Source of the DNA: Collinsella sp. | GTDB taxonomy: Bacteria; Actinomycetota; Coriobacteriia; Coriobacteriales; Coriobacteriaceae | NCBI GenBank assembly: GCA_048302525.1 | Contig: DBFDDV010000107.1 | Span: 1-60,111, forward strand | Direction of reading: 5' to 3' | Length of the DNA: 60,111 nt | Part shown: positions 15,811 through 47,367 of the stretch, piece after piece | Position numbering within the stretch: the stretch's first letter is position 1 | How the letters are laid out: the number at the start of each line of letters is the position of its first letter | Notes under the pieces: model-generated | What the model saw: the letters and a program-made list of their open reading frames with translations, nothing else | Databases searched by the model: none | Told to the model about the DNA's origin: nothing | Translations under genes and position numbers: made by a program

Positions 15811-16878
15811 CTACACGGCCTGTGCCAGCTTCTCGGCTCGCTCGGCGGCGGCGAGGGCCTCGATGACGGTGCCGAGCTGGTCGCCCAGAAGCACGCCGTT
15901 GTAGGTGGAGTTGAAGCCGATGCGGTGATCGGTCACACGGTCCTGGGGCTGGTTGTAGGTACGGATCTTCTCGGAACGGTTGCCGTGGCCGATCTGGCTC
16001 TGACGCTCGGCACCGAGCTCGGCCTGCTGCTTCTCGAGCTCCATCTCGTACAGACGGGCGCGCAGCATCTGCATGCAGACCTCGCGGTTCTGAATCTGGG
16101 AGCGCTGCTCCTGCGACTGCACCACGGTATTGGTGGGCAGGTGGGTGATGCGCACGGCAGAGTAGGTGGTGTTAACGCACTGACCGCCAGGGCCGGAAGC
16201 GCAGTAGGTGTCGATGCGCAGATCGGACTGGTTAATCTGGACGTCGATCTCCTCGGCCTCGGGAAGCACGGCGACGGTAGCCGTGGAAGTCTGGATACGG
16301 CCCTGGGACTCGGTCTTGGGAACGCGCTGGACGCGGTGCACGCCCGACTCGTACTTCATGACGGAGTAGACGCGGTCGCCCTCGACCTTGAACTCGATGG
16401 ACTTAAAGCCGCCAGCCTCGCTGGGGCTGGAATCGAGCACCGTGGTCTTCCAACCGCGCGACTCGCAGAAGCGCTGGTACATCTTGTACAGATCGCCGGC
16501 AAAGATGGCAGCCTCGTCGCCACCGGCGGCGGAGCGGATCTCGACGATGGTGTTCTTGTCGTCGTTGGGATCGCTCGGGATGAGCATGTACTTGATGTCT
16601 TCCTCGAGCTGCGGGAGCTTTTCCTCGTTCTCGGAGATGTCCATCTGGAGCATCTCCTTCTCGTCCGCATCGCTGGTGTCGCGGAGCATCTCCTTGGCGG
16701 CCTCGATGTCATCGAGCGCGCCGATGTACTCACGCGAGGCAGCGATGAGGTCGGACTGGTGTGCGTACTCCTTGTTGAGACGCGTGAACTCCTTGATGTC
16801 GGAGGCGACGGCCGGGTCGGAAAGCTTCTTCTCGAGCTCCTCGTAGGCCTTGATGATCTTTTCGAGCTTGTCGCGCAT
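15811..16878 (-). CDS. prfA: Peptide chain release factor 1
   Basis: GGDEAAIFA, ESGVHRVQRVPKTE (PxT motif), SGPGGQ, RSEKIRTYN. Confidence 0.98.
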   Translation of the reverse strand: MRDKLEKIIKAYEELEKKLSDPAVASDIKEFTRLNKEYAHQSDLIAASREYIGALDDIEAAKEMLRDTSDADEKEMLQMDISENEEKLPQLEEDIKYMLIPSDPNDDKNTIVEIRSAAGGDEAAIFAGDLYKMYQRFCESRGWKTTVLDSSPSEAGGFKSIEFKVEGDRVYSVMKYESGVHRVQRVPKTESQGRIQTSTATVAVLPEAEEIDVQINQSDLRIDTYCASGPGGQCVNTTYSAVRITHLPTNTVVQSQEQRSQIQNREVCMQMLRARLYEMELEKQQAELGAERQSQIGHGNRSEKIRTYNQPQDRVTDHRIGFNSTYNGVLLGDQLGTVIEALAAAERAEKLAQAV

Positions 16879-17074: not shown

Positions 17075-17095
17075 AATGTGACACAGGGTCAGTCC
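17075..17095. repeat. Left half of split family-A palindrome (island left junction)
   Basis: AATGTGACACAGGG-TCAGTCC; matches left arm of 41345-41375. Confidence 0.65.
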
Positions 17096-17109
17096 GCCAA
17101 CGTAAGGCT

Positions 17110-18435
17110 CTACTTTAAGAACATGGCCATATATAACGGAAGCGTCACCTTTTTGCCGTCTCGGCCGACGTTGCCGTCTATCAGCTTGTACCCAAGGTTC
17201 ACGTCCTGCCGCTCGAGCATGTCGTTGAGCGATACCGTAGATCCGCGCGAGGCCTTCACCTCAATGGGCACAACGCTCGCGTCGGGCGAGTCGACGAGAA
17301 ACTCTATTTCCCTATCGCCCTTCTGCGACCGCCAATAGCGCAGAGCCACACCCCGCGCCGAAAGCATGCAGGCGACCAGGTTCTCGTAGAGGCCGCCTTT
17401 CATGGGACCCGCGAGCTTGTTGTTCACCACCGCTTCCAGCATTTCAAAGCCGTACATGGCCATGAGCACGCCCGTATCGGCGGCATAGAGGCGAAACTTC
17501 GTCCCATCTTCATAGGCGGCAAGAGGGAATTGGGCGGCGCTCACCGACTGGCACCGTCGCACCATACCTGCTCCCACGAGCCAATCCACGGACGAGCCAA
17601 ATTTGCGCGCCGTTCCCCTGTTCTCGACCACGGAATACTGGAACTTCGTATTCTCCTTTGCGAGCTGGCGCGGCAACGATTCAAAGCACGCCCGCGCACG
17701 CCCGCGCTCGGGGGCTTGCGCGTATCGAGCCACGTCGTCGAGATACGAGGCGAGCAGCCTGCTTTGCTCGTCGAAAGCAACGGCGAAGTTGTCCGTCCGC
17801 GCAAAGGCGTCCACCACCGCAGGCATACCGCCGACCGCGAGGTACTCGCGCAGCATCTGCATCATCTTCTGATTCACCGCAACGGGCACGGGCATCAACG
17901 ACTCATAGTATTCCCGCAAATTGGCGATATCGTCCTCCCCATACCCGCGCGCCCAAAGGTACTCCTCAAAATCGAGGGGGCCCATTTCGACCTCTCGCTC
18001 GTACCCAACGGGAATGGAGGCGAGCGCAGCCTCCTCTTTGAACCGAATGCCCAAGAGCGAGCCCGACGCAACGACATCGCACCTGCCGTCGAGAGCGAGA
18101 TACTTGAGCGCAGCGCGAGCACGTGGGCACTCCTGAATCTCGTCGAGGAAAAGAAGCGTTCGTCCTGGAACAAAGCGCACGCCGGGCACGACGAGCGATA
18201 TCTGCCGGTAGATCGAGTCGGCATCGATTGGGCCATCGAACACCCGCTTAAGGTCCGGGGACCCAATGAAGTCTATGGAGATGAAGCTTTCGTAGTCCTG
18301 CCGCCCGAACTCGGCGACGATGTACGACTTGCCAACCTGTCGCGCGCCCTTGATGAGAAGGCATTCGGCGCCCTTTTCCGCCCGCCACGAACGGAGGTTG
18401 TCGAGCATCTTTCGCTTCAGCACACTACGCACCAT
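17110..18435 (-). CDS. AAA_14 ATPase with C-terminal DUF4143 (PD-(D/E)XK-like) domain, paralog 1
   Basis: GARQVGKS Walker A, LFLDEIQ Walker B, GGMP, DTG, ENLVA, EIEF...PIEVKAS; start could be GTG at 18423. Confidence 0.9.
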   Translation of the reverse strand: MVRSVLKRKMLDNLRSWRAEKGAECLLIKGARQVGKSYIVAEFGRQDYESFISIDFIGSPDLKRVFDGPIDADSIYRQISLVVPGVRFVPGRTLLFLDEIQECPRARAALKYLALDGRCDVVASGSLLGIRFKEEAALASIPVGYEREVEMGPLDFEEYLWARGYGEDDIANLREYYESLMPVPVAVNQKMMQMLREYLAVGGMPAVVDAFARTDNFAVAFDEQSRLLASYLDDVARYAQAPERGRARACFESLPRQLAKENTKFQYSVVENRGTARKFGSSVDWLVGAGMVRRCQSVSAAQFPLAAYEDGTKFRLYAADTGVLMAMYGFEMLEAVVNNKLAGPMKGGLYENLVACMLSARGVALRYWRSQKGDREIEFLVDSPDASVVPIEVKASRGSTVSLNDMLERQDVNLGYKLIDGNVGRDGKKVTLPLYMAMFLK

Positions 18436-18448
18436 CCTTCACCTGCTG

Positions 18449-18560
18449 TTTGCAGCTTTTCAGGATGGATTTTACCAACTTTTGCAGCTTTTCCGGGTGT
18501 ATTTGGCCTAGATTTGCAGCTTTTCCGGGTCCAGATAGCCGCTTCGTGCAGCTTTTCCGG
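18449..18560. repeat. Four-unit direct repeat array, 32-bp period
   Basis: TGCAGCTTTTC(C/A)GG starts at 18451, 18483, 18515, 18547 with non-identical intervening sequence. Confidence 0.9.
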
Positions 18561-18640
18561 ACTTCTAGAGGGCGCGGCGCGCTTAGGAGCTGCAGAATCA
18601 TAATCGCGTGCAAACGGCGGGCTAACATAGCCTTTCACCG

Positions 18641-18678
18641 AAAAGGGCGGGCGGCCGCGCCCTGCGACCACCCGCCCT
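18641..18678 (-). terminator. Intrinsic terminator after adhesin gene
   Basis: AGGGCGGG...CCCGCCCT stem followed by TTTT on the minus strand. Confidence 0.6.
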
Positions 18679-18706
18679 CAATCAAATCCCTTCTCGGCAG
18701 CCGCAG

Positions 18707-21700
18707 CTACCGGTTCCGGCGCCGCAGGATCACACCTGTGGCGATCAGCACCACTGCGCCGCCCGCGATGCCACCCAGGGCCATCGGCGACAAGCTGGTA
18801 TCGCCCATGTTCGGCAGACCCGGCTTCTCCTCCTTCGACACCGGTGGGTTGGTGGGCGGCTCCGTCGGCGGGTTGACCGGCGGGGTGGTCGGCGGCGTGT
18901 ACGTGTTCTTGAACACCGGCGCCACGTCACCGTCATAGGTTACCGTCGCCACCAGATGGCCCGCGCCGTCGTCCGTCACCGTCACCGTTACCTGGTGCTC
19001 GGCCGCGTCGTACGTCACGTTCTTCTGAGCGTCGTTCACCTCGGAGATGCTGTAGCCGTACGTTCCGGGCTTGTCGTACGAGATCGCCTTGAAGCCCACC
19101 GTGCCGTCCGCCGCGTTCTTGGCGGTCTGCAGCACCTTGCCGTCGGCATCCTTCAGCTGGAAGGAGAACTGCCCTTCCTTCAGGTCCTTGCCGCTCAGCA
19201 CCTTGGAGGCCCCCAGCTTCACCTCAGTCGCGGCCGGCGCGTAGCTGTTGCTGAACGCCACCGCATCCGCAGCCTTGCCGCCCGTGCTGTAGGCAACCTG
19301 CGCCTCCAGCGCGTGCGTCTCCGCATTCTCCGTCACCGTCACCGTCGCGGTAAAGACCGTCGTGTCGTAGGTGACGCCGTTCGTCGCCGCGCCGACCTGC
19401 TCGGAGACGGTATAGACATACGTCCCCGCCTTGTCCAGCTGCAGCGGCGCAAAGTTAAACGTGCCGTCGACGCCGTTCTGCACCGTCTGGACCACGTTGC
19501 CGGCGGCGTCCTTCAGGTCGAAGGAAAACTCGCCCTCGGCCAGGTCGCGGCCGGTCAGGGCCTTCGTTCCGGTAATCGTCGCCGTCGTTGCCGTCGGCGT
19601 GTAGGTGTTGGTGAAGGTCAGATCCGCGGCCGTCTTGTTCGCCGTCGCGGTCAGCTGGCCGCTGCCGTCGTCGGTCACGCTCACCGTCACATCCAACACC
19701 GCATCGCTGTAAGTGATGGTGCCATCTTGGCCCGCAACCTCCTTCACCTGGTACGTATGCGAACCAGTCGCAGTGTACGAGATGGCCTTGAAGGTAAACG
19801 CGATACCCGCGTTCGTGGTCCGGTCAATCTCCTGCCCGGTGGCCGCGTCAATCAGCGCGAACGTGAACTCGCCATCGGCGGGCGTCCGCATGGTGGCCGA
19901 ATCGGTATTCTCAAGCACCTTGATGCCGGAGATCTGGTAGGAGGTCGCGCCCGGCTGGTAGCTGTTCGCAAACGTCATGGTGTTGGGGGTGACGCCGTTC
20001 TCGGTGCCCTTGCTCGGCTTCGCCGTGGAGCTCTCTACCGCCAGCTTGCCGTCGTTGTTGTCCTTCACCACGTAGGTCAGGGTGTACGTCTTGCCGGTGT
20101 AGGTCACGCCCGGCACGCCCGGCGCGTCCCCCGTCGGCTGCACCTCGCGGACCGTGTAGGTAAAGGTGCCCGCATGGTCGAAGGTCAGCTTGTCGAAGGC
20201 AACCTTGCCGTGCGCATCGTTCTTCTGGGTCTGGATCACCGAGCCGTCAGACCCCACCAGCTCGAAGGCGAAGTCTCCCGCCTTTAGCTGATAGCTGCCG
20301 TCGTGCACGTCAACGCTCTTGGTGAGGGCGATCGCGCCGGAGTCCGTCGCCTGTGCCTCGTAGGTGTTGGTGAAGCTGGGCTTCGTGACATTCGTGCCGT
20401 CGTAGGCGACGCTCGCCTGCAGCGTGCCGGCATTGTCCGCAACCGTCACCACGGCATGGTGCACCGCGGCGTCGTAGGTCACGTAGGCCAGATCACCCTT
20501 CCGCTCCACGATGGTGTACTCGTGCGTGCCCGGCTTCGCGTAGGAGAAGGCGTCGAAGTTAACACTTCCGTCCGCGCCGTTGGTCGCGGTCCGGACGGGC
20601 TTGGCCCCGGCAAGCTGCTCAGCCGTCAGGTTGCCCTCGTACACATCGAAGGTGAACTCGCCGCACTTGGGGACGATCGGCGTGTTGTCGTCCTTCTTCA
20701 CATAGCTCTTCTGCGCACCGAGGGCCAGGCCGGTCGCGGCCGGCTGGTAGGTGTTGGTGAAGGTATCCGAGCCGGATGCGCTCGTCACGATCGCCTTCGC
20801 ATTCAGTGCTCCGTTCCCGCCGTCCGTGACCGTCACCGTATAGGTGAGGGGATGGCTGTCATAGACCATGCCCGGCTCCGTGCCCGACTGTTCCACGATG
20901 GTGTAGGTGAAGTCCTTGCTCGCGGCGCCGTCCAAGTCGGAGAGCTGGAACTCGCGCGTGAAGCTGACCTTGCCGTTTGCATCGTTCTTCGCGGTGTCGA
21001 GCACGTTGCCGGCAGCGTCCTTCAGGTCGAAGGTGAACTCGCCGTCCGCGGGCTTCGTCGTGTGGTCGAAGCCGTCCGCAACCTTGATGGTCTTGGTCGC
21101 CGTCAGGATTACGGAACCCTTTGCGTCGTAGGTGTTGTTGAAGGTGGGAGCCGTAGCGGCACCGTCATAGGTGACGGTCACCTTCGTCTTGTTGTTGTCG
21201 CCCTGGTTCTGCTCTACCTTGACGTGGACCTTGACTTCCTTGACGTCGTAGTCCACGCCGTCGACGGTCTGGCCCGCCTTCTCCTCCTTGAGCGTGTAGT
21301 CGTACTCGCCCAGGTTCAGGCCCTTGACGGCCAGCTTGACCTTGCCGCCCTGGTCGTTGGTGCCCTTGGCAACCTCGTTGCCGGCCTGGTCGTACAGGCC
21401 GAAGGTGAACGCGTCGGCCGTCAGGTCCTTGCCCGCGAGAACTTTCGTGGCCTCAACGACGACATTCGCCGTCGGCTTCGTGTTGGTGAAGGTCGGCACG
21501 GCCTTCTCTCCGTCGTATGTGACGGTCGCCTTCAGCTCGCCCTTCTCGTCGGTGACCTTGACGTGGACCCTTACGTCCTTCGCGTCGTAGACGACGGTCG
21601 AGTCGTTGCCGGCAACCTCCCTGATGGCGTAGTCGTGCTCGCCCGGCGTAGCGTAGTCGATGGCCGCAAAGGCGACCTTGCCGTCCTTGTCGTTTTGGGC

Positions 21701-24700
21701 AGTCTGGAGCTCTTTGCCGTCGTTGTCGAGCAACTGGAACGTGAAGTCGCCCCCTGCGAGCTCGCCACCCGTGAAGCGCTTCGTCGCCTTGAGCGTTACC
21801 GAGGTCTCCTTCGGGTGGTACGTGTTCGTGAAGGTCTTGTCTCCACTCGTTACCTGCGGTGTGGCCGTCAGCGAGCCGGTGCCATCGTCCGCGACCGTCA
21901 CCTTGTAGATGAGCGCATGGGTGTCGTAGGCCATGCCCGGCTCCGTGCCCGGCTTCTCCGCGATGGTGTAGGTGAAGTCCTTGCTCGCAGCGCCGCCCAG
22001 GTTGGAGAGCGTGAACTTGCGCGTGAACTTCACCGTGCCATCGGCCTTGTTCGTCGTGGTGCCGAGCACCTTGCCGTCGGCGTCCTTCAGCTCGAACGTG
22101 TATTCGCCGCCCTTCAGCTTGGTGTCGTGCGTGAAGCCCGGCGCGACCGCAACGATCTTGGTCGCCGTCAGCTCCACGGATCCCTTTGCGGTGTAGGTGT
22201 TCGTGAAGGTGGGGGCATTGGCCTTGTCACCATCGTAGGTAACAGCGGCGTCCAGCTTGCCGGCATTGTCCATGACCTTCACCACGGCATGGTGCACCGT
22301 AGCGTCGTAGGTCACGTGGGACAGGTCGCCCTCCTGTTCCGCGACGGTGTATTTGTACTCGCCGGCCTTGGTGTAGTCGATGGCCGGGAAGGTGACGGTG
22401 CCGTCCTCGCTGTTCTTGGCGCTCCGGATGGGTTGCTTGCCCTTCAGCTGCTCAGCCGTCAGGTCGCCCTCGTACAGGTCGAAGGTGAACTCGCCGCCCT
22501 TGAGCGTGGCCTGCGTGTTGTCGGACTTCACATAGGCCTTCTTCGCCGTGAGCGCCACCGAGGTCTCGGCGGGCTGGTACTTGTTAGTGAAGGTCGGGGC
22601 ATCGTTCTTGCCGTCATAGGTGACGGTCGCCTTCGCCTTGTCGCCCTCCGCCTTCACCGAGACGTGAACCTTCACCGCCTTGGTGTCGTAGGTGATAGTC
22701 GGATCGGCACCGACGTTCTCCTCCTTGAGTTTGTAGTCGTACTCGCCGATGGTCAGACCGGTGAGGGCAAGATTGATCTTGCCCTCCTTGTCGTTCTGGA
22801 CGATCTTGACGGGATTACCCGTGGACGTGTCGCCTTGGTACAGGCCGAAGGCGAACGCGCCGTCCGTCAGCTCCTTGCCCGTGAGGGTCTTCTTTGCCTC
22901 GATGGTTGCATCGGCCGTCGGCTTCGCGTTGGTGAAGGTCGGCACGGCCTTATCGCCGCCGTAGGTGACGGTTGCGTCCAGCGTGCCGTTCTTTTTATCG
23001 GTGACGCTGACCTTGACCTTCACTTTCTGACCGTCGTAGACGACGGTCGGGTCGGCGCCCTTCACCTCCTTGATGGTGTACTCGTAGTCACCGGCCTCGG
23101 TGTAGTTGATGGGCTGGAAGGTAATGTTGCCGTTCTCGTCGTTCGTGACGGTCTCAAGGGGCGTGCCTTCCGCCTTGTCACCCTTGTACAGAGCAAACGA
23201 GAAATCGTTCCCCGCGAGCGCACCGCCCGTAAAGTACTTCTTCGCCGCCAGGGTCACGGAACCCTTCGCAGCATAGCTGTTGGTAAAGGTGGCGAGGTTC
23301 ACCTTGCCGTTCTTGACCTCAAGCGTCTCGCTCTTGTCATCGCCGTCCTTCTTCACCGCCACGCCTGTGACAGTCAGCTTGGCATTCTTGTCCTCAACCC
23401 TTACCGTGACGGTATAGGTGGAATCGTCCATCGTCCAACCAGCGTTCTGCACACCAGTCGTATTAGGATCGTCATCTTCCCCGTGGGCCTCGGTGAGAGC
23501 AAACGTGTAGTCGCCTGCCTTGTTGAATTTCATGCCGGAGAAGTTGAGGGTCTGACCGTCCTTGCCGGTGATCTCCCCCTTCGTGGTCTTGGACTCCGAG
23601 GATGTGTCACCCTTCAGGCCGTCAGCCTTCAGATCGCCGGCGGCAATCTTATCCTTCGTCTCCGACGTGGCAGCCAGCGTGAACGAGAACTCCTTGTCCG
23701 TGCTCTCGGTGCCGGAGACCTTCTTCGTTACCTGCGGGGTCAGTTTGTCGCTGGCAGTCGTCTTGTAGCTGTTCTCGAACGGAATGGTTAGCGTGGAGTC
23801 TTCCGGTGTTGAGGCCGCATTGATCGCCTTAGAAGCGACGACTTTCTCCTCGCCCGGTTTACTCGGATCAGGTGCGTACAGCGTCGACACCACACCGATC
23901 GTGCCATTATGATTGTCGAGCACCTCGATCTTCACTGTGTACTCGGTCTTGTCATAGGTGTAGCCGGCGGGAATGGCCGACGGCACGTCCTCAACAACCT
24001 TGTACCGATAGACATTGCCGCCGTGCGCGTTGTTGACATCATCTTGCGTGAACTTCAGGGCATCCGTGGGCAGCAGGCTCACGGTCTTGGTATCCCCGGG
24101 CTTCATCTCGGGAGTTTCGAAAGTCTTCGAGTTGCCGTCAATACCGAGCTTCGCGGCGGCCTGCGCGGCCGTCGTCATCGTGAACTCCGTACCATCCTGC
24201 GCGAACGCCGTTGCGTCAAGCGGAGTCACCGTAAAGCTGAATCTACTGCTGGCGCCAGCCGTGCCGTTGAATGTCTTCTTGATCTGCAAGCCGGCTTTCG
24301 CGCTGTAATTAACCGGATCAACCTTGTACTTGTTCTTAAACGGAACCGTGGGCTTGCCGTCATCGGACTTCAGGCTCGAGACCGTCTGCACGTAGTTGGT
24401 CGTGGTATCGAGACCCTTAATCGCCTCGGCCGTCAGCTTATCAACGTCGCCGTTCTCGCCGACAAGCGCCGTCACGCCCGGGCCCTTCACAACCGTCGTC
24501 TCGGTGTAAAGCTGACCCTTGTTATCCAGGTTCGGTTTCACCGCGATGAGCACGTAGGCGTCACCGGAGTACTTGGTGTCATACGTGTACCCATCAGCAT
24601 CGGCGCCACGCGCCTCAGACACCTTGTACACGTACATCTTGTTGTAGCTCAGCTGCGTGAAGTTCATCTTCAGCTTGCCGGACATCGTGGCGGTCTGCGT

Positions 24701-27700
24701 ATCGTCACCGTCATCCTTGCCCACGGTGTTCTTGAACGACTTATCGGTATCAGCCGGCTCCGGGGCCGTCGTACCGTTATACGTCATCGCCTCGATGGTG
24801 AACGGGAACATGCCATTCTTCAGCGGGGTACCAACCAGAGTCTTGGTCACATCGATGCCCGCGTAGGTACCAGAGGCCGCATAGATGTTGGTGAACGCGG
24901 CGGCGTCCGTCACCTGCCGGTCGGCATCCGTCGTCGCCTGCTTGTTGTCGTACGCAACCGACGCGGTCAGCTTACCGGTGTGCTTGCCGTTCTCGATATC
25001 GATCACTGTGTACGTCACCGTGGACGTATGGCCGTCATACGCAATACCAGTCTTATCCGCGTCGGTCGGCTTCGTCTCGTTCACATTGAACGTATACGTG
25101 CCCGACTTGGTGAACACCAGGTCGCCCGCACCGAAGGTTGCAGAACGCGTCGCGTCACCGGCGCCTGCGATCTCAACCTTAGTCGTCAGATCGCCGGTCT
25201 CATCGGAGTCGGTAGCCTTCCTCTGGGTAACGACCTTGTTTTTAACCGCATCCCTCGTCGCATCATCCGCCGGCGTCAGGGTGAAGTCGAACGCATCGCT
25301 CGTCTCCCACGCGCGCCCGGTGAACGTCTTTTGCACGTTAACCGGCGCCGACGTCGCCTGGGTCACCGTGTAGGTGTTCTTGAACGGGATGTATCCGTTG
25401 GCGTCCGTCAGCTGCGTGCCGTCGGCCTTCCAATACGTGACCGTGGAGGACAGGCACTTACCCGTCCCAGACTCGTTATCAACCTGCTGGTTCTTCACCA
25501 GCACGTAGTACACCGTATCGTCGTAGCCCATGCCACTGGACGTCGATGTATCGGAATCCTTGACCTCGGTCACCTTGTACACGTAAGTGAGGTTCTCGCT
25601 GCCCATCGTATAGGTGATCTGCGGGAACGCGGCGATACCGCCGTCATCGTTCTTCGCCGTGGTCGTGGTGGACGTGCACCCCTTAGGCATGGGGACCTTG
25701 CTGGCACCGACGCTGTAGGAGGTGGCGAGCTTGCCGAAATCGATGGCTCCACTCGGCACGGCATCATTCTTCATCCCGCCGAGTGCCTCGAGCTGGAACG
25801 TGAACTTATCCTTCACAAGCGGATTTGCACCGGACTGGTCGGCATACGTCTTCTGCACGTTGAAGGAGATGGTCTTCTCATCGGTGTTATAGGTGTTCGT
25901 GATCTTGGCGATTTTGTCAGCGACCTCGATCGGGTTGTCCTTTTGGCTCATACCGTCGTCGGTGTAGGTCTGCTCCATCTTGACTGCCGGCTGCGACAGC
26001 GTGCCGTCGCCGTTATCCCTCACCGTCACCGTGACACGGTAGGTAGCGCTCGAATACCCGAACCCGGGCAACCAGTCAGCGTCGTTTTGAGACGGCGTGG
26101 CCTCGGCAATGAGATAGGTGTAGGTGCCGGGCTTGGCGTACTCAATATTGCCGAAGTCGAACGTGTCCCCGTTCTTGACGGTCTTCACAACCTGCTTCAT
26201 ACCACTCACGGGCGCATCCTTGGCACCGGCGGGCATCGGCGTGCCCTTGTCCGCGCGCAGGTAAATCTTGAAGCTATCGCCATCCTTCCAGTCACGGCCC
26301 CGGAGCACCTTCTGCGCCCAGAACGCATTGGTGAGCGTCACCGGCGGCTTTACGCTGTAGGTGTTCGTGAATACCAGCTTGTTGGCTTCGGCCAACGTGC
26401 CGTTGGCGTTCTGCTTCGCAATCGTGCCGGAGATGCTGGCGCCCTCGCCGCTCAGGGCGTTGCCGCCCTGCTCGCGCTTGGTCAGCGTGAAGCCGGCCGG
26501 CATCTTGTCCGTACCGGTCAGTTCCTGCACCGTGTAGGTGTCGTGCTCGGCGAGACCGTACACGCGGATCGTCTGGCCGTCCGTGATGGTCTGCTCGCGG
26601 CCGTTCTCGAGGTCGAATATTTTGCCGACCTGCTTCTCGCTTGCGGTCCCCGCGTTCTCAAACACCGCGGCCTTGTACGTCTTCCCCGCCGTCGTGGGCA
26701 CGGTGAACTTGAAGGTGAACCCCGCGTCCGGTTTTCCCGTCAGGCCCGCTGGCACCACGACCTTCTTCGTCACCTCGAGGCTCGCCTCGCGCTTGTTCGC
26801 TACGCGCACACAGGTGGCGCCCGTAAACAGGGCATTCAGGTTCATGTCGTCCAGATCGGCGCGGGCGCCCTTCGCATTAGTGTCACCAGACACGTCCTGG
26901 GTGATACCCATACGTATCCAGCCCGTCTCGGTCTCCAGGCGGTAGGGTTTGCCCTCCTCGGTGGGCCCATACTGGTACATGCGTCCGTTAGCGCCGTACT
27001 TGAGGTGCACTGTGTCGTCTGCACCCACGGGTTCGACATCGGTCCACGTCAGGTTGCCTTTAACATTGGTCTCGCCATTCGAGGTCTGCCGCGTACCCTT
27101 GATCCACGTGAGCGTGTTGTCGATGTCGCCCTCTGCGCCAAACTGGCCCAGACTCTTCATGAGCGCGCCCGGGCCCACGAACGTCGAAACGCCGTCATCG
27201 TCCGTACCAGCATCGGCATGGACGCCGCAATCGTCCACAATCACCTTGGTGAGCGTGTCGTTAAGCAGGAAGCCCTTGGGAGCCGAGACCTCCTTTAGGA
27301 AGTAAGTTCCATTCACGAGCGGCCTGTTACCGTCGCTTGTATTCGGGAATATGCCCGCACCTTCGAGCGGGACCGGGTTGCCGACCGACCCCGTCCTCAG
27401 GGTGTCGTAGGGGTCCTGGCCGTCCTTGAGCACGACCTTGCCGTTCGCATCCGTAGTCACCTGGGTGGACTTGTACAGGCCGAACTTCGCGCCGTCTACG
27501 GGGTTGCCCTCGGTATCGGTCTTCTGCACGAACAGGCGGTTCTGGATGTTCGTGACGAGCAGGCGCGTGGCGAACTGTCGCTGGAAATTCTTCTCGCCGC
27601 TGGGGAGGTCATCGCTGAACACGTGGACCGTGTTGTCCGTATTCGCGTTGGCGATGGAACTCGCCGTTGTGTGGTAGATGGTCACCGTGTACTCGGCATC

Positions 27701-29620
27701 CTTGCGGGCATCACCGCTCAGCATGTAGTAGTAGCTGGAGATGTCACCGGGCAGATACGGAATCTCTACCTGGTACTGGCCGCTCGTGTTGAGCGTGAAG
27801 GCGTGCAGGTCCTTCTTCGCCGCCTCGATAGCGCCGGCCATGCTCGGCTTCTTGGCGAGGGTGTATCCCGCTCCCGTCGATGGGTCGCCCGACACGGCGT
27901 ACCAACTGTTCGGATCGTTGATATCTGTGCTTGCGCTTTTATCGCGCTTGAGCACCACAGCGAACAGTATGCCGGAGTCCAGGCTGACGGTCTTGTCGGA
28001 CTTCGTCTGGTCATCGCTCGCCTTGTACACGATCGACGGCGCGGTGATGGTCTCCTTCGCGCCGGCGAACGCACCCGTCTGCCACACGGCGCTGTCCGCG
28101 TCCATACCGCCGCGGTTAATGATGACGCCGCCCGCGCCGTTCTCAGCGCTCGCGGGCACGTACTCGAGCTGCATGCTACCACCCGTCGCCGCGAGACTCG
28201 AGCGGTATCCCTCGGGTACGCGCGTCTCCTTCAGGAGGTAGTACTTGTTGTTGTCGTGATCCTTGTTGTAGAGATCGTCGAAGTTGATGACGCCGTTGTC
28301 CACGTCGTTCGTGAGCGTTAGGTGGCCGGCCTCGTCCGTGGTACCGGAGCCGATGAGCTCGCCCACGGTCTTGAAGTCCTTGTCGGTCTTATAGAGCTTG
28401 AACTCGGCACCCTGTACGAACTTGCCGTCCTGGTCGAACTTGATGATGTCGGACTCGGGAACCGTCACGAGGTTGAACTTGAGCCTCATGTTGGAGTCGG
28501 TGGCGCCACGCTCCAAGTAGAAGAACTTGAGCGTGTGGTTGGTGCCGCCAGCGAAGGTGTTGCCGTTGAAGCCCGAAATATCCCGCCCCGCATCCTTGAA
28601 CTTGCTTTTCAGCGTGCCATTTGCGGAATTGTTAACGCTGATGTCGCCCGTTTGGAAGTTAATGGTCAGATCAGCACTGGTGTGGATACCGCCAATGTCG
28701 CCCACGAGGACATCGTCAATGAACACCCAGACGTCGTCGTCTCCGGCGAACTCAAAGGTCATGGGCTTGTCAGCGTTCGTTTTGCCATCCTTCGGCTGCA
28801 CGAAGCGCGACGACATGGAGAGGCCGAAATAATGGTTGAGGGGTCCGTTGTTCTGCGACGTAATGCCGTTCGGGACGAGTTTGCCGTCCTCTTCCTTGAA
28901 TACCTCATCGGCCGCATCGAAGGGGAAGAACTGGCCTACTGAATGAGGCTCAGCCCCCGCTTGCATAACGCCGGCAGCATTGTAGACATCAAATGCATTC
29001 TTATTGGCGTTGTATGCCGCGTAGTTCCGCGAGCTGTCATACTCGTAGTAGCCACCCTTGGCCTGCAACAGACCCGTCACACCCATATGGGATATCTTGC
29101 CCGTCTGGACGGAGGAATCAAACAGGTAGCCGAGGGATTCTCCCTCCCAGCGGTCGGTGAGTTTCGGGTAACCACCGGCAAGAACATTGTTCACGATGCC
29201 GGTGCGGACCCGGGAGTCACCCGTATACTGGTTAAGTTCCTCGCTGGCTCCTTGATCCTTGAACTGGAAGCGGTGGTTCTTGTTGATGCCGCCGTTGCCG
29301 GAAACCGACAGATGGTTATCGGGATTCACCCAGTAATCAAACAGGTTGATTGTTGTCCCCGAAGGCGAAATCGTCGGAACCGTGTGGTCCGAAATTGCCG
29401 CCTCGGCACGAAGCGGCAGGAAGAAACTCGCCGTCAGCGCGATGGCGAGGGCCAGAACAATCGCATATGGTGAGACCGAGCGCAGCCCGCGACGACGGCC
29501 ACAAAACATGACGGACCACCGCTCGCGCGGCCGGTGTTCACCAGGAAGTTCCCTGCTTAGACACCCCCCCCCGGTAGCAATATTCACGAGTCGAGACGTC
29601 GTCTCTCTGAGCTCCTGCAT
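18707..29620 (-). CDS. Giant sortase-anchored adhesin (~3,637 aa): PA14/fibro-slime domain, SpaA/Cna-B-like domains, many Spy0128/FctA-type repeats, LPNMG anchor
   Basis: Signal-like hydrophobic segment ending AEA; FEFAGDDDVWVFID fibro-slime motif; repeated K...F-x-F-x-L...Y-x-Y-x-x-x-E...YD...FTNTY units; Pro-rich linker, LPNMG, TM, RRRNR; ATG 29620 with GGAGG SD. Confidence 0.9.
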   Translation of the reverse strand: MQELRETTSRLVNIATGGGCLSRELPGEHRPRERWSVMFCGRRRGLRSVSPYAIVLALAIALTASFFLPLRAEAAISDHTVPTISPSGTTINLFDYWVNPDNHLSVSGNGGINKNHRFQFKDQGASEELNQYTGDSRVRTGIVNNVLAGGYPKLTDRWEGESLGYLFDSSVQTGKISHMGVTGLLQAKGGYYEYDSSRNYAAYNANKNAFDVYNAAGVMQAGAEPHSVGQFFPFDAADEVFKEEDGKLVPNGITSQNNGPLNHYFGLSMSSRFVQPKDGKTNADKPMTFEFAGDDDVWVFIDDVLVGDIGGIHTSADLTINFQTGDISVNNSANGTLKSKFKDAGRDISGFNGNTFAGGTNHTLKFFYLERGATDSNMRLKFNLVTVPESDIIKFDQDGKFVQGAEFKLYKTDKDFKTVGELIGSGTTDEAGHLTLTNDVDNGVINFDDLYNKDHDNNKYYLLKETRVPEGYRSSLAATGGSMQLEYVPASAENGAGGVIINRGGMDADSAVWQTGAFAGAKETITAPSIVYKASDDQTKSDKTVSLDSGILFAVVLKRDKSASTDINDPNSWYAVSGDPSTGAGYTLAKKPSMAGAIEAAKKDLHAFTLNTSGQYQVEIPYLPGDISSYYYMLSGDARKDAEYTVTIYHTTASSIANANTDNTVHVFSDDLPSGEKNFQRQFATRLLVTNIQNRLFVQKTDTEGNPVDGAKFGLYKSTQVTTDANGKVVLKDGQDPYDTLRTGSVGNPVPLEGAGIFPNTSDGNRPLVNGTYFLKEVSAPKGFLLNDTLTKVIVDDCGVHADAGTDDDGVSTFVGPGALMKSLGQFGAEGDIDNTLTWIKGTRQTSNGETNVKGNLTWTDVEPVGADDTVHLKYGANGRMYQYGPTEEGKPYRLETETGWIRMGITQDVSGDTNAKGARADLDDMNLNALFTGATCVRVANKREASLEVTKKVVVPAGLTGKPDAGFTFKFTVPTTAGKTYKAAVFENAGTASEKQVGKIFDLENGREQTITDGQTIRVYGLAEHDTYTVQELTGTDKMPAGFTLTKREQGGNALSGEGASISGTIAKQNANGTLAEANKLVFTNTYSVKPPVTLTNAFWAQKVLRGRDWKDGDSFKIYLRADKGTPMPAGAKDAPVSGMKQVVKTVKNGDTFDFGNIEYAKPGTYTYLIAEATPSQNDADWLPGFGYSSATYRVTVTVRDNGDGTLSQPAVKMEQTYTDDGMSQKDNPIEVADKIAKITNTYNTDEKTISFNVQKTYADQSGANPLVKDKFTFQLEALGGMKNDAVPSGAIDFGKLATSYSVGASKVPMPKGCTSTTTTAKNDDGGIAAFPQITYTMGSENLTYVYKVTEVKDSDTSTSSGMGYDDTVYYVLVKNQQVDNESGTGKCLSSTVTYWKADGTQLTDANGYIPFKNTYTVTQATSAPVNVQKTFTGRAWETSDAFDFTLTPADDATRDAVKNKVVTQRKATDSDETGDLTTKVEIAGAGDATRSATFGAGDLVFTKSGTYTFNVNETKPTDADKTGIAYDGHTSTVTYTVIDIENGKHTGKLTASVAYDNKQATTDADRQVTDAAAFTNIYAASGTYAGIDVTKTLVGTPLKNGMFPFTIEAMTYNGTTAPEPADTDKSFKNTVGKDDGDDTQTATMSGKLKMNFTQLSYNKMYVYKVSEARGADADGYTYDTKYSGDAYVLIAVKPNLDNKGQLYTETTVVKGPGVTALVGENGDVDKLTAEAIKGLDTTTNYVQTVSSLKSDDGKPTVPFKNKYKVDPVNYSAKAGLQIKKTFNGTAGASSRFSFTVTPLDATAFAQDGTEFTMTTAAQAAAKLGIDGNSKTFETPEMKPGDTKTVSLLPTDALKFTQDDVNNAHGGNVYRYKVVEDVPSAIPAGYTYDKTEYTVKIEVLDNHNGTIGVVSTLYAPDPSKPGEEKVVASKAINAASTPEDSTLTIPFENSYKTTASDKLTPQVTKKVSGTESTDKEFSFTLAATSETKDKIAAGDLKADGLKGDTSSESKTTKGEITGKDGQTLNFSGMKFNKAGDYTFALTEAHGEDDDPNTTGVQNAGWTMDDSTYTVTVRVEDKNAKLTVTGVAVKKDGDDKSETLEVKNGKVNLATFTNSYAAKGSVTLAAKKYFTGGALAGNDFSFALYKGDKAEGTPLETVTNDENGNITFQPINYTEAGDYEYTIKEVKGADPTVVYDGQKVKVKVSVTDKKNGTLDATVTYGGDKAVPTFTNAKPTADATIEAKKTLTGKELTDGAFAFGLYQGDTSTGNPVKIVQNDKEGKINLALTGLTIGEYDYKLKEENVGADPTITYDTKAVKVHVSVKAEGDKAKATVTYDGKNDAPTFTNKYQPAETSVALTAKKAYVKSDNTQATLKGGEFTFDLYEGDLTAEQLKGKQPIRSAKNSEDGTVTFPAIDYTKAGEYKYTVAEQEGDLSHVTYDATVHHAVVKVMDNAGKLDAAVTYDGDKANAPTFTNTYTAKGSVELTATKIVAVAPGFTHDTKLKGGEYTFELKDADGKVLGTTTNKADGTVKFTRKFTLSNLGGAASKDFTYTIAEKPGTEPGMAYDTHALIYKVTVADDGTGSLTATPQVTSGDKTFTNTYHPKETSVTLKATKRFTGGELAGGDFTFQLLDNDGKELQTAQNDKDGKVAFAAIDYATPGEHDYAIREVAGNDSTVVYDAKDVRVHVKVTDEKGELKATVTYDGEKAVPTFTNTKPTANVVVEATKVLAGKDLTADAFTFGLYDQAGNEVAKGTNDQGGKVKLAVKGLNLGEYDYTLKEEKAGQTVDGVDYDVKEVKVHVKVEQNQGDNNKTKVTVTYDGAATAPTFNNTYDAKGSVILTATKTIKVADGFDHTTKPADGEFTFDLKDAAGNVLDTAKNDANGKVSFTREFQLSDLDGAASKDFTYTIVEQSGTEPGMVYDSHPLTYTVTVTDGGNGALNAKAIVTSASGSDTFTNTYQPAATGLALGAQKSYVKKDDNTPIVPKCGEFTFDVYEGNLTAEQLAGAKPVRTATNGADGSVNFDAFSYAKPGTHEYTIVERKGDLAYVTYDAAVHHAVVTVADNAGTLQASVAYDGTNVTKPSFTNTYEAQATDSGAIALTKSVDVHDGSYQLKAGDFAFELVGSDGSVIQTQKNDAHGKVAFDKLTFDHAGTFTYTVREVQPTGDAPGVPGVTYTGKTYTLTYVVKDNNDGKLAVESSTAKPSKGTENGVTPNTMTFANSYQPGATSYQISGIKVLENTDSATMRTPADGEFTFALIDAATGQEIDRTTNAGIAFTFKAISYTATGSHTYQVKEVAGQDGTITYSDAVLDVTVSVTDDGSGQLTATANKTAADLTFTNTYTPTATTATITGTKALTGRDLAEGEFSFDLKDAAGNVVQTVQNGVDGTFNFAPLQLDKAGTYVYTVSEQVGAATNGVTYDTTVFTATVTVTENAETHALEAQVAYSTGGKAADAVAFSNSYAPAATEVKLGASKVLSGKDLKEGQFSFQLKDADGKVLQTAKNAADGTVGFKAISYDKPGTYGYSISEVNDAQKNVTYDAAEHQVTVTVTDDGAGHLVATVTYDGDVAPVFKNTYTPPTTPPVNPPTEPPTNPPVSKEEKPGLPNMGDTSLSPMALGGIAGGAVVLIATGVILRRRNR
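29564..29572 (-). repeat. G9 homopolymer in adhesin 5' coding region
   Basis: C9 on plus strand, reading ACC GGG GGG GGG TGT in frame. Confidence 0.8.
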
Positions 29621-29787
29621 AATTTCCTCCCCAGTCGCACGGCGACCTGCCCGGGCGCTCCCCGGGGGCCGAGGCAGTCTGGCACATGCCCGCAGTCGTT
29701 CAAGGAATACCAACCCCAGCATATGTCTCTTAAGATATCTTAGCCTTTTTCTATTACAGTTTTTGTCTCATTACCGATGAAATCGGC

Positions 29788-29806
29788 TCAGTCCCTTTGT
29801 CACATT
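29788..29806. repeat. Right half of split family-A palindrome (island right junction)
   Basis: TCAGTCC-CTTTGTCACATT, immediately beyond the M20 peptidase stop. Confidence 0.7.
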
Positions 29807-31222
29807 CTAGAGCGTGCGGAGCAGGGCGATGAGGAAGCGGGTGCCTTGGAGGTAGGCGCGGCGGGTAATGCGCTCGTTGGTGCCGTGGACGCCGCGATCG
29901 CACTCGTCATCGTCGACCACAAAGGCCGAGAAGCGAATGCACTCGGAGCAAATGCGCTGGTAGTTGGCAGCGTCGGTCGCGCCGATCACGGTCGAGGGGA
30001 CAATCGCCAACGGCTCGGATGATCCGTTTTCCTCCGTCCCCTTTGGATCACGGAAATAGCGGGCGGCGATGGAGCGAACCGCCTCGAGTCCCGGTCCGCC
30101 GATGCGCGGAGACGGCGAGGGTTCGGAGCTGCCGGGGCCGAGCTCGACCTCGACACGGTCGGCGAGCCCCGCCTCGGCAACGGCGACGCGGCAGCGGGCC
30201 ACGACATCGGCCACGCTCGTGCCCTCGAGCATACGGAAATTGATATCGGCCCACATATCCTGCGGCATTACGTTGGCGCCGGTGCTGCCACCCTCGACCT
30301 GCGTGGGCGCGCAGGTGGTGGTCACGAGCGGATAGAGCTTCTTGCTGGCGAGGCAATCGCGGACAATGGCGCCCCCGTTGGCGGCAATTTCATCGGCCGT
30401 GTAAAGCCCCAGCTCGACGAGCTGTGCGGCAAGCAGGTCCGTGACGCGCGTCGGCCACTCGATATCGCAGATTGCGGTGATGGCACGGCTAAGCACCTCG
30501 AGCGACGTGCCGCCGTAGGGGTTGGAAGAATGTCCACCCGCGCTCTTTGTCTTGAGCACAATGTCGGCATAGCCCTTCTCCGCGAGGTCGGCGTGCATGA
30601 GCCAACCCTCGCCCGCGCTGTACTCGGCATCCGAAACGATGCGGTAGTCGCCCTCGTCGATCAGGAACTCGAGCTCAACACCGCGCTCCTCGAGCGCGCG
30701 GCCGATGGCGCCTGCGCCGCACTGCGTCGTCTCCTCGTCCTGGCCAAAGGCCAGGAGCAGCGTCCGCTCGTGCTGCCAACCGTGCGCCAGCGCATACTCG
30801 ACAGCCTCGAGAATGCCTGCGACCTGGTCCTTCATGTCGATCGCTCCACGGCCCCAGATGTAGGTGTCGTCCACGTGCCCGCTAAAGGGGTCGTGCGTCC
30901 AGTCGGCCTCGGTACCCGGCACCACGGGAACCACGTCCATGTGGCCCATGAGCATAATGGGCTTGAGGTCAGGGTCGGAACCGCTAAGCGTCACCAATAG
31001 CGAATGGTCGATAAGGTCGACCTCGCCCGCCGCGAACACGCGCGGCCACGCCTGCTGCATATAGGCGCGCAGGTCGTCGAACGGCTGCCAGTCCACCGCC
31101 TCGGCATCCATACTCGAGATGGTCGGAAATGACAGCACGCGGCCCAAGCGCTCGCACGCGCCAGTTTCGTCCAAATCGGCAAAATCGTCCTCATGCGCAA
31201 AGAAGCGCCAAACCTCGGCCAT
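29807..31222 (-). CDS. M20/M25/M40 metallo-hydrolase (carboxypeptidase S/PM20D1-like)
   Basis: GHMDVVP, IWGRGAIDMK, GQDEE, IDEG, GGHSS, GATD, HGTNERI. Confidence 0.88.
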   Translation of the reverse strand: MAEVWRFFAHEDDFADLDETGACERLGRVLSFPTISSMDAEAVDWQPFDDLRAYMQQAWPRVFAAGEVDLIDHSLLVTLSGSDPDLKPIMLMGHMDVVPVVPGTEADWTHDPFSGHVDDTYIWGRGAIDMKDQVAGILEAVEYALAHGWQHERTLLLAFGQDEETTQCGAGAIGRALEERGVELEFLIDEGDYRIVSDAEYSAGEGWLMHADLAEKGYADIVLKTKSAGGHSSNPYGGTSLEVLSRAITAICDIEWPTRVTDLLAAQLVELGLYTADEIAANGGAIVRDCLASKKLYPLVTTTCAPTQVEGGSTGANVMPQDMWADINFRMLEGTSVADVVARCRVAVAEAGLADRVEVELGPGSSEPSPSPRIGGPGLEAVRSIAARYFRDPKGTEENGSSEPLAIVPSTVIGATDAANYQRICSECIRFSAFVVDDDECDRGVHGTNERITRRAYLQGTRFLIALLRTL

Positions 31223-31294
31223 GACATCCTTTCGATTGTGATGACGAGGGCCGCCCCACCGGAGCGGCCCTGCCACGCAAACATTTGCGGTTGG

Positions 31295-43732: not shown

Positions 43733-43818
43733 GGGCAAACATAGCCCAAGGTGGCGAGTAACCGGTGAAAACCGCCCAATATGAGTATGTTTATCCGCCT
43801 GGAAGCTTCAGCAGTGCA

Positions 43819-43912
43819 ATTTCGTGTATTTGAGATACACGCTTTTCTATTATTTCGTGTATTTCAAGTACATGAAATCGTACTAAACTATGTATCTGAA
43901 GTACACGAAATT
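43819..43912. repeat. Three palindromic units, 33-bp period
   Basis: Consensus ATTTCGTGTAT-N5-RTACACGAAAT; TGTAT starts at 43825, 43858, 43891. Confidence 0.85.
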
Positions 43913-45777: not shown

Positions 45778-45799
45778 GCAATCGAGGTCGCGGGCCACG

Positions 45800-45813
45800 C
45801 CTTTGTCACATCC
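45800..45813. repeat. Orphan right arm of family-A palindrome
   Basis: CCTTTGTCACATCC between converging PTP and AAA genes. Confidence 0.5.
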
Positions 45814-45823
45814 GGGACTAGCC

Positions 45824-47185
45824 CTAGACCGGCTTGACCTCCAGCTTTATCCCCTCGGCGCAGGAGTCGCCCAAAACATCCGAAAGGGCCCAGGTCGCAT
45901 ATAGCGGCAAATAGAGAACCGCTCCGTTGCGCTCAACGTTGCCTCTCGAGAAAACAATCCCGAGCCTTACGCCATATTCAGCCGTATCAAGCACATGACC
46001 GAGCGCAGCGTGCGCGTGGTAATAGGAGCCCGATTTAACCTCGATCGGAACAGCCGTCCCATCCGGTCCATCGACCACAAAGTCCACTTCACCGCGCTTT
46101 TTTGTCTGATAGTAGTAAAGCTGGCGATTTTGGGCAGCCAGCTGCTGGGCCACCACGTTTTCGTAAATGCCGCCCAGATTGGGCTCCTTGCTATCAAGAT
46201 ACGCCGCTTGGGCGACTCCGACGGGGTAGCGCGCCATCAACATGCCCGTATCCGATTGATATAGCTTGAACTGCGATGGCCGTGCCGTCTTGAGCAAGGG
46301 CGATTTTGGCTCGGTTACGATATCGGCTTTGAGAGCAACGCCGGCATCGACAAGCCATACAAAATCTCGCTGATACTTCTCGTAGTGAGCCTTGGGGTCA
46401 ATGGAATTGAGCACGAAGCGCTTGTTTTCGCCCTCGAGCATAATAGGGAGCTGATCGTAGATGCTCTGCACCTGAAGGGCTCGCCCGCTTGCATACTTGG
46501 AGATATCCCGCCGGTACTGTTCGTTGAGCTCTGACTGTAGCTGACGAACAGAGGCAAGGTCGCCCTGCGTGTCAAGGAAACGCTGCACGACCTCCGGCAT
46601 TCCGCCGACAACGGTATAGGTCCTGAAGTTTGCCATCATCGCGTCATGAATATAATCAGGAACGGGCCTCTCGCTGATACACGCGTCATGTATCGTTTGG
46701 CGAGCCCCCTCGCTCACCCCGATTGCCCAGCAAAACTCCTCAAAATCGAGCGGGAACATCCTAAGCTCGTGAACATACCCCACGGGATAGGACCTGACGC
46801 CCTTGAACTGAGTCCCGAGCATTGACCCCGAAAACGCCCAACGGCACCTCCCGTCCTCAACAAGGAACTTTGCCATTGTCATGATGTCGGGGGCCTCTTG
46901 GACCTCATCGATAAACACGAGCGTTTTGCCTGGCGCAATCGACTTTCCCGAAAGAAGCGTCACCCTGCTGATGAAATCATCGGCATCCCGCGCCTCGAGA
47001 AGAGCATCTTTTGCCTGGCGGTTTTCCATGAGGTTAAGCTCGATGTAGGTTGCATGGTTGGCTTTGCCAAATGCGCGAATCGAATAGCTTTTGCCAATCT
47101 GGCGAGAACCCGTAATGAACAAGGCCTTTTGCTCGGAAGACTTCAGCCAACGCTCCAGCTCTGCCGCTATTTTCCTGCGCAGCAT
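45824..47185 (-). CDS. AAA_14 ATPase with DUF4143 domain, paralog 3
   Basis: GSRQIGKS, VFIDEVQ, GGMPE, SDTG, YENVVA, EVDF...PIEVKSG; ATG 47185 with GAGGGGAG SD. Confidence 0.9.
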   Translation of the reverse strand: MLRRKIAAELERWLKSSEQKALFITGSRQIGKSYSIRAFGKANHATYIELNLMENRQAKDALLEARDADDFISRVTLLSGKSIAPGKTLVFIDEVQEAPDIMTMAKFLVEDGRCRWAFSGSMLGTQFKGVRSYPVGYVHELRMFPLDFEEFCWAIGVSEGARQTIHDACISERPVPDYIHDAMMANFRTYTVVGGMPEVVQRFLDTQGDLASVRQLQSELNEQYRRDISKYASGRALQVQSIYDQLPIMLEGENKRFVLNSIDPKAHYEKYQRDFVWLVDAGVALKADIVTEPKSPLLKTARPSQFKLYQSDTGMLMARYPVGVAQAAYLDSKEPNLGGIYENVVAQQLAAQNRQLYYYQTKKRGEVDFVVDGPDGTAVPIEVKSGSYYHAHAALGHVLDTAEYGVRLGIVFSRGNVERNGAVLYLPLYATWALSDVLGDSCAEGIKLEVKPV

Positions 47186-47204
47186 AGGCTCTCCCCTCGG
47201 TGTC

Positions 47205-47292
47205 ATCGAATGAAATGCAAAGTTTTATATGCTTGATTATCGATGAAATGCAGGATTTTTAGAACCTAAAATCGGATGAAATGCAGAGATTT
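47205..47292. repeat. Three-unit direct repeat array, 33-bp period
   Basis: ATCG(N0-1)ATGAAATGCA...TTT; TGAAATGCA starts at 47211, 47244, 47277. Confidence 0.85.
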
Positions 47293-47326
47293 GAGATTAT
47301 AAGCAAAAGAAGGGGCACCACCGGCG

Positions 47327-47359: not shown

Positions 47360-47367
47360 GCGCTCGA

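Follow-up and report, generated by a model that had tools for sequence, protein, structure and literature searches.

A surface-adhesin island inserted into a REP-like palindrome between prfA and an M20 peptidase gene in Collinsella

We analyzed a 60,111-nt stretch of a Collinsella sp. genome (GenBank assembly GCA_048302525.1, contig DBFDDV010000107.1; this whole stretch is called the window) in which 12.7 kb of DNA encoding a giant cell-wall adhesin and an AAA_14/DUF4143 ATPase separates the two halves of a repetitive extragenic palindrome (REP)-like sequence. What separates the halves is a true insertion into a single palindrome, located between prfA and a gene for an M20-family peptidase and bordered on both sides by TCAGTCC. 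Relatives carry the same palindrome intact and unoccupied. The AAA_14/DUF4143 cassette is a later passenger, nested in the left end of an older form of the island. We consider it probable that an insertion by staggered cutting took place once, long ago, at a REP-like hot spot, and that the locus was later remodelled and spread by flank homology. The island is an accessory islet of a known kind, situated at a REP hot spot, and reveals no new mechanism.

The junctions and the genes that flank them are listed here, with positions given in the window.

15811..16878, minus strand: prfA, peptide chain release factor 1, the left core flank (Pfam PCRF 242.6 bits, RF-1 139.8 bits)
17075..17088, plus strand: split family-A palindrome, left arm (AATGTGACACAGGG), which in relatives with an empty site runs uninterrupted into the right arm
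17089..17095, plus strand: left direct repeat TCAGTCC, made up of the palindrome centre and 2 nt of the right arm; the older form reads TCAGTCTCTTT here
29788..29794, plus strand: right direct repeat TCAGTCC, read from the sequence
29795..29806, plus strand: split palindrome, rest of its right arm (CTTTGTCACATT), from the sequence and from empty-site relatives
29807..31276, minus strand: M20-family peptidase, the right core flank (Pfam Peptidase_M20 89.2 bits, with M20_dimer)

A first-pass annotation of the window had described a palindrome apparently split by the island with a 7-bp duplication, and both junctions were confirmed. The left junction, AATGTGACACAGGG/TCAGTCC, occupies 17075-17095 and the right junction, TCAGTCC/CTTTGTCACATT, occupies 29788-29806; the M20 stop codon (CTA on the plus strand) begins at 29807 and abuts the palindrome. 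The predicted empty site was also found. A search with the M20 end covered 40 relatives and the window's own genome, after which both flanks were aligned. Seven of the 24 same-genus relatives (L003, L005, L008, L010, L013, L016, and L019) have an intact 33-nt palindrome with nothing between its arms, arranged as prfA-upstream...GGAAT(CC/CT)GACAAAGGG-(ACAGT/GCAGT/AGAGT)-CCCTTTGTC(GG/AG)ATT-CTA, where CTA is the M20 stop codon. Other alleles at this locus break after AATG, with a different hairpin of about 50 nt in five of the 24 and a palindromic insert of about 70 nt (TAGCCGTTGGGGACG...) in four; such alleles were seen in L002, L004, L006, L007, and others. The island is present in G007, G015, and G004, the last with both junctions on one contig, and the rest of the 24 relatives yielded a single flank only.

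The search was widened to a genus sample of 201 genomes, with the window's own genome included. A degenerate pattern for the intact site matched 47 of these genomes, with 41 matches at the prfA-M20 locus and the remaining seven (one of them a second match in G095) in other flanks. Centres of the 41 empty sites read ACAGT, AGAGT, GCAGT, ACAAT, or ACAGC. The first centre position is always A or G, and the T found there in the TCAGT core occurs in none of the 41, so no sampled site resembles an excision product. Arms at the orthologous site vary in compensatory pairs (CCGACA/TGTCGG, CTGACA/TGTCAG, and GTGACA/TGTCAC), which indicates that the hairpin is under selection. Among metagenome data, which consisted of assembled contigs of public runs and are uninformative where stretches within the adhesin repeats are uncovered, one contig from run X6 joins 17078 to 29791 through an A-centred palindrome. 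Its depth is 6, compared to about 33 for the island, and this empty allele probably comes from another strain. One genome, G107 (87% complete, 2% contamination), shows an unoccupied prfA-M20 site and an island-bearing one on contigs C38 and C104 and is probably a mixed assembly.

The palindrome belongs to a dispersed group referred to here as family A. Its 14-nt arm has nine matches at two or fewer mismatches in the window, compared to 0.38 expected, and none of 100 shuffles reached nine. Intact copies lie at about 36367, 41344, 42389, 47327, and 58081, and the copies in the window are intergenic. About 16-17 copies are spread over many contigs of the window's own genome, a fragmented assembly of 2.0 Mb that is 91% complete. 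Intact copies in the window fold as DNA hairpins with energies of -13.9 to -15.1 kcal/mol (z -7.0 to -8.7), values that none of 200 shuffles equalled, and the orthologous intact palindrome in L005 folds at -16.8 kcal/mol. Neither half-site folds (z -0.25 and -1.86). Rejoining the halves had been expected to restore a regular family-A copy; the palindrome is indeed intact in relatives, but the TCAGT centre of the split copy departs from the family centre, R-C-W-G-Y, and from all 41 empty sites. Like REPs, family A is a short imperfect palindrome with a stable hairpin. Classical REPs are usually present in more than 100 copies (PMC2817692), whereas family A has only about 16-17 per genome.

A check of other loci for split palindromes had also been proposed, and none was found in the window's own genome, where the about 17 family-A copies include no other split palindrome and no clean half-site. 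The copy at C93:17083 is decayed, with a 9/14 match. Three matches to PF01797 (Y1 transposase) occur in this fragmented assembly, with no clean family-A copy within 2 kb of these genes; a loose pattern picked up one divergent GC-rich palindrome near the PF01797 gene on C79. Further palindromic families in the same genome include CCTGCCAAAAAGGGACAGGTTTATTTTGGCAGG, with about 27 copies, and GTTGCGGTGAAATAGGGA, with about 52.

Between the two halves lie the following features.

17110..18435, minus strand: AAA_14/DUF4143 gene, an AAA+ ATPase fused to a PD-(D/E)XK-type domain (Pfam AAA_14 74.1 bits, DUF4143 96.5 bits)
18452..18560, plus strand: four direct repeats GCAGCTTTTC(A/C)GG with a 32-nt period, starting at 18452, 18484, 18516, and 18548, upstream of AAA_14
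18563..18570, plus strand: TTCTAGAG, remnant of a copied M20 stop region; a 61-nt M20 copy follows the array in forms II and III
18607..18632, plus strand: tail of a transposase relic, probably of the IS1595 family, with an end resembling a right inverted repeat (IRR), GGGCTAACATAGCC, at 18619-18632; homologous to the older form and to a second adhesin location, locus B
18707..29722, minus strand: giant cell-wall adhesin open reading frame (ORF), 3671 aa (Pfam FctA 920.9 bits in 18 stretches, SpaA, DUF7601)
29744..29787, plus strand: right-terminal 37-44 nt of the island, outside the adhesin module; homology to locus B ends at 29749/29750, and the segment is also seen in G337

The AAA_14/DUF4143 gene and the adhesin are the only ORFs of the island; there is no recombinase ORF between the halves and no integrase gene within or beside the island. 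Nine matches to the Phage_integrase family (PF00589) occur at about seven places in the window's own genome, on contigs other than that of the window. The cargo had been described as these two genes and the repeat array only, a list to which an insertion sequence (IS) relic, probably of the IS1595 family, and a relic of the M20 3' end must be added. The array upstream of AAA_14 may serve as an operator. The translated adhesin terminates, in the region 18707-18830, in a sorting signal, LPNMG, and a signal peptide likely starts from a Met near 29509, which would be the start codon. The corresponding sorting motif is LPYTG in G108 and LPEMG in G185; the canonical threonine is not conserved.

Comparison of island-bearing genomes was used to order the parts of the island in time. 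The right junction, GATGAAATCGGC-TCAG(T/C)CC-CTTTGTC..., was found in 37 of the 201 genomes, and the right end of the island in 38 of 171 genomes of the genus, compared to 0 of 29 genomes from five further genera of the same family. A 14-nt insertion, TTGCCAGTTGCCGG, which is a near tandem repeat, stands directly before the right direct repeat in L148-L151 (G134, G333, G331, and G261). AAA_14 cassette or array DNA occurs in 17 of the 201 genomes, always at the prfA-M20 locus: eight have the full gene, three an internally deleted gene, and six the array only, so that the gene itself is present in 11. Fourteen of the 17 are among the 37 genomes with the right junction, and the other 23 of the 37 have no AAA_14 sequence. 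Loci were retrieved from 20 of these 23 genomes, and all 20 contain the adhesin. In the 19 retrieved loci that include the left flank, about 450 nt with the IS relic take the place of AAA_14 (the older form). Their left junction reads AATGCGACAAAGGG-TCAGTC-TCTTTCC in 18 of 19, G152 having TCACTC, and the direct repeat of this form is TCAGTC(T/C)CTTT, identical in 10 of 11 positions. The left arm is GCGACA in all 19, and the right arm is TGTCGC or TGTCAC.

Intermediate alleles connect the older form to that of the window. In forms II and III, the array is followed by a 61-nt copy of 29805-29865 (93-95% identical), which precedes the last ~100 nt of the IS relic, all that these forms retain of it; the M20 piece is joined to the relic at a CGCG-N-CGGG microhomology. 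The window retains only TTCTAGAG (18563-18570) of the M20 copy and the relic tail from 18607. In G107, CTTCC of the older left end is kept between TCAGTCC and the stop region of AAA_14. A truncated relic cannot yield a longer one, and therefore the older form came first and AAA_14 followed. The cassette is 97%-99% identical across eight species representatives, whereas the neighbouring M20 gene is 85%-90% identical in the other island-bearing genomes examined, a contrast that suggests recent exchange of the cassette through flank homology. Neither the cassette nor the right end of the island was found at a second locus (201 genomes in each search).

The relic in the older form probably belongs to the IS1595 family. 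The 450 nt end in a 70-residue in-frame fragment, which in L093 aligns to the C-terminus of a 387-aa protein of the genus (39% over 64 aa, E value 4e-10), and this protein scores 28.4 bits on PF12762 (cut-off 27). Small ORFs of the older left end, the relic fragment included, had no Pfam or NCBIfam match, and the window's own genome has no PF12762 match. The IRR-like end of the relic, GGGCTAACATAGCC, matches the right end of an IS in G112 in 11 of 14 positions by manual count; the window keeps about 26 nt of the relic. This G112 element (L129-L131) is an IS1595-family element of 1.43 kb with at least six copies and appears to be active. In the three copies that were aligned, the inverted repeat is 25 nt long (GGCTCTGTTAGACC...) and the duplications are T-rich and 8 bp in length; one of these copies stands directly behind a terminator hairpin. 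For the IS1595 family, 8-bp duplications and A/T-rich targets are described in an account of ISApl4 (PMC12561309). The IRR-like end of the relic abuts the T-rich tail of the adhesin terminator, and no left IS end (the inverse of the IRR-like end) was found in L093 or L132. An IS30-like N-terminus had been considered for the older left end and was without support; the tblastx match to L132 is antisense to another gene.

The adhesin module also occurs at a second location, in genomes with an unoccupied prfA-M20 site. In G185 and G268, the latter with an intact palindrome at prfA-M20, the module (18607 to 29749/50, 82%-92% identical) is placed between the equivalents of window positions 34203 and 34442, about 4.4 kb from the prfA-M20 site (locus B). 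The left joint at locus B is a CGTCGGGGAC microhomology with another palindromic element, and 548 nt of unrelated DNA lie on the right side. In G337, only the last 44 nt of the island (29744-29787) remain beside the right arm. The borders of the adhesin module are therefore 18607 and about 29750, and not the direct repeats. Between the 34203 equivalent and the adhesin, L187 (contig C24 of G185) has 2.8 kb with a HigB-like toxin gene, an XRE-type helix-turn-helix gene, and a DUF4143 relic that scores 27.7 bits, just below the cut-off of 28.1. Kinship of this relic with the AAA_14 protein of the window was considered and rejected, as the two are unrelated in sequence (E value 0.70).

The window contains three AAA_14/DUF4143 paralogues, each with three or four short direct repeats just upstream. 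These repeat sets are GCAGCTTTTCCGG with a 32-nt period (18452-18560), GATGAAATGCA in three copies, and TTCGTGTATTT with an inverted partner, the sets of the other two paralogues lying at 47203-47292 and 43810-43912. The gene is lost with part of the array left behind in form III and, at the second paralogue, in G003 and G005. Together, these patterns suggest that the repeat sets are self-operators and that the gene is recurrently lost. The paralogue at 45890-47185 was considered as a second palindrome insertion and rejected, the locus being a patchwork with a decayed half-site and no clean empty site. Positions 45800-45812 keep a right arm only, where G019 has an intact palindrome. The region 45778-47360, from a low-molecular-weight phosphatase gene to the next gene, is highly polymorphic among relatives and carries inverted repeats (GAGCGTGGATTTTCTCCC) that resemble miniature inverted-repeat transposable elements, intact or half palindromes, and sometimes the AAA_14 paralogue.

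The history that we regard as probable begins with a REP-like hairpin palindrome directly 3' of the M20 gene and upstream of prfA, which would have been struck once in an ancestor within the genus. Its strands would have been cut 6-8 bp apart at the palindrome centre, and repair would have duplicated TCAGTC(C), possibly up to 11 bp (TCAGTCCCTTT). The 6-8-bp duplication, with target bases retained, suggests a staggered cut like those made by transposases or integrases. The cut may have been of the transposase type, made for an element whose ends have since been overwritten and whose enzyme the island does not encode today. Remnants of the original element may amount to only about 150-350 nt on the left, in the older form, and 37-44 nt on the right. 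The adhesin module, with the IS1595-family relic abutting its terminator, would then have taken the site and produced the older form. Subsequently, the AAA_14/DUF4143 cassette with its array and the 61-nt M20 piece would have replaced the left ~350 nt through illegitimate recombination at the short homology CGCG-N-CGGG, and the M20 piece and most of the IS relic would have been deleted in the lineage of the window. The allele is now found in about a fifth of sampled species and probably moves by homologous recombination via the conserved flanks, which would make an integrase unnecessary. Because the separated arms do not co-vary and the junctions are shared, we infer one ancestral event and not repeated integration, which would give matching arms.

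Several observations weigh against a single transposase-type insertion. Terminal inverted repeats are lacking at the island ends, whose best local alignment scores 19, compared to 15.7 +/- 2.2 and a maximum of 23 for shuffled sequence, and the ends do not match the inverted repeat of the G112 IS. There is no working transposase gene in the island, and the relic in the older form has only about 70 in-frame residues. The IS relic is probably a bystander or secondary insertion and not the vehicle, because its IRR-like end lies at a T-rich terminator, the usual target, and its left end is absent; TCAGTCC itself is not A/T-rich. The length of the duplication is ambiguous (6, 7, 8, or 11 bp with one mismatch) and therefore names no enzyme family. 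A T at the first centre position is present in both repeat copies and in 0 of 41 empty sites. Finally, the occurrence of one event only is read from shared junctions.

Two rival readings were weighed against this history. In one, which has some chance of being correct, the extruded hairpin or cruciform would have been broken, perhaps by a nuclease that processes hairpins, foreign DNA would have been captured by end joining, and fill-in at staggered ends would have left the duplication, all without an enzyme dedicated to a mobile element. It would account for a break at the loop of a very stable hairpin and for an island with neither inverted repeats nor a recombinase; microhomology joints exist at the locus (CGCG-N-CGGG) and at locus B (CGTCGGGGAC), and the same palindrome has two more replacement or insertion alleles, which break after AATG. 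However, a clean 6-7-bp repeat without target loss is more typical of transposition than of end joining, and the duplication is asymmetric about the palindrome axis, where cuts at the loop borders would give 5 bp. The idea that the two halves are remains of two separate palindromes, each having lost one arm, retains practically no probability. Half-sites do arise, as 45800-45812 and the 9/14 copy at C93:17083 illustrate, but in relatives the same flanks are joined, to the base, by exactly one intact palindrome, and this rival is therefore refuted.

Site-specific capture was the proposal of the first-pass annotation, in which the palindromes act as cassette-capture sites for an enzyme acting in trans or possibly for the AAA-nuclease; identical junctions, arms that do not co-vary, and the absence of TCAGT from all 41 empty sites speak against it. 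A host tyrosine recombinase, acting as XerC/XerD do at dif-like sites, might integrate integrase-less circles through a TCAGTCC core. This is unlikely, although the 14-5-14 architecture with an identical 7-bp core at both ends would suit such an enzyme, and the nine Phage_integrase-family matches outside the window offer candidates. Element sequences adjacent to the core are weakly arm-like (7/14 and 6/14 compared to about 3.5 expected, by manual count), a similarity that a duplication of 11 bp would explain on the left. The starts of two kinds of cargo, the AAA_14 block and the older left end, lie within a few bases of the same point, and dif modules provide the closest integrase-less precedent (PMC6449649). 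On the other hand, the T-centred core is missing from the 41 empty sites, no second split palindrome occurs among the about 17 family copies of the window's own genome, all 37 right junctions are the same, the arms do not co-vary, and the adhesin at its second locus is bounded by microhomology joints and not by palindrome halves. Quite unlikely, in our estimation, is the broader version, in which family-A palindromes are sites of a host enzyme (Xer-like or Y1/HUH) that repeatedly loads promoter-to-terminator modules at their centre. Under this version, the prfA-M20 site would serve as a landing pad whose cargo turns over, the modules would be the adhesin block, AAA_14/DUF4143 cassettes with operator arrays, and small palindromic inserts, and the core T would be the footprint of a donor site.

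It is highly improbable that the AAA_14/DUF4143 ATPase-nuclease cut the palindrome and inserted its own cassette with neighbouring DNA. DUF4143 is listed in the PD-(D/E)XK nuclease superfamily (PMC3424549), the cassette is compact (extending from 14 nt beyond the stop codon to an array of repeats of its own), some of the three paralogues in the window lie near palindromes, and the DUF4143 relic (27.7 bits, below the 28.1 cut-off) stands beside the locus-B adhesin in G185. Yet AAA_14 sequence is missing at the locus from 23 of the 37 genomes that have the identical right junction, the cassette of G107 lies within the older left end, the cassette was found at this locus only among the 201 genomes, its right border is the M20 piece and not a palindrome half, and the G185 relic is unrelated to the window protein. 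The AAA_14 protein, which had been suggested as the agent, is thus excluded as the agent of the original insertion.

The island was compared to known systems. REPs and bacterial interspersed mosaic elements (BIMEs) are reported as insertion targets of IS1397, ISKpn1, IS621, ISPpu9/10, ISPa11, and ISRm22 (Tobes and Pareja 2006, PMC1525189). The same source describes ISRm22 as giving a direct repeat of 6 bp at the axis of the palindrome, and it notes an association of strain-specific loops in Escherichia coli with BIMEs. As with these elements, an extragenic hairpin palindrome is split here, and its halves rejoin in silico to a consensus copy. In contrast, the island is a 10-12.7-kb block of cargo without terminal inverted repeats or a working transposase, and it is found at one palindrome only, as one event, where a genome has about 17 palindrome copies. 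Modules flanked by dif sites have a complete site at each end and are found in numerous locations and combinations, whereas the island has half a site per end, a single occurrence, and no restored T-centred sites. Both dif modules and other Xer-dependent elements resemble the island in being integrase-less and bounded by two-arm sites with a short centre. The island is linked to the IS1595 family by a relic whose sequence aligns with the C-terminus of transposases of the genus and whose right end is similar, and the family's 8-bp duplications overlap the 6-8 bp of the island, but the relic has no Pfam match and no left end, and it sits at the A/T-rich tail of a terminator. ISEcp1-type transposition units are mobilized by one IS end and a surrogate distal end. 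The island resembles them in having one IS end, a long cargo, a direct repeat around the unit, and no recognizable second inverted repeat; this likeness is only an analogy, and to our knowledge such mobilization is not known for the IS1595 family.

Outside the island, a 32-nt stretch at 30019-30050, inside the M20 ORF, has dozens of 87%-97% matches across genomes of the genus, frequently in inverted pairs spaced about 50 nt apart. Its borders are also the exact points at which many metagenome contigs break. A dispersed repeat thus seems to share sequence with this coding region.

The locus provides a clean and comparatively documented case of a surface-adhesin island in a REP-like hairpin in a gut actinobacterial genus. 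Its intermediate alleles show how an islet is rebuilt, with an IS relic, replacement of a cassette, microhomology joints, and relocation to a position about 4.4 kb away. The islet persists in about a fifth of sampled species without a recombinase of its own. A split palindrome with a short direct repeat is not in itself evidence of an active capture system, and such features should be read with that caution. The island adds support to the idea that, outside the Proteobacteria as well, genome plasticity has hot spots in small extragenic palindromes.

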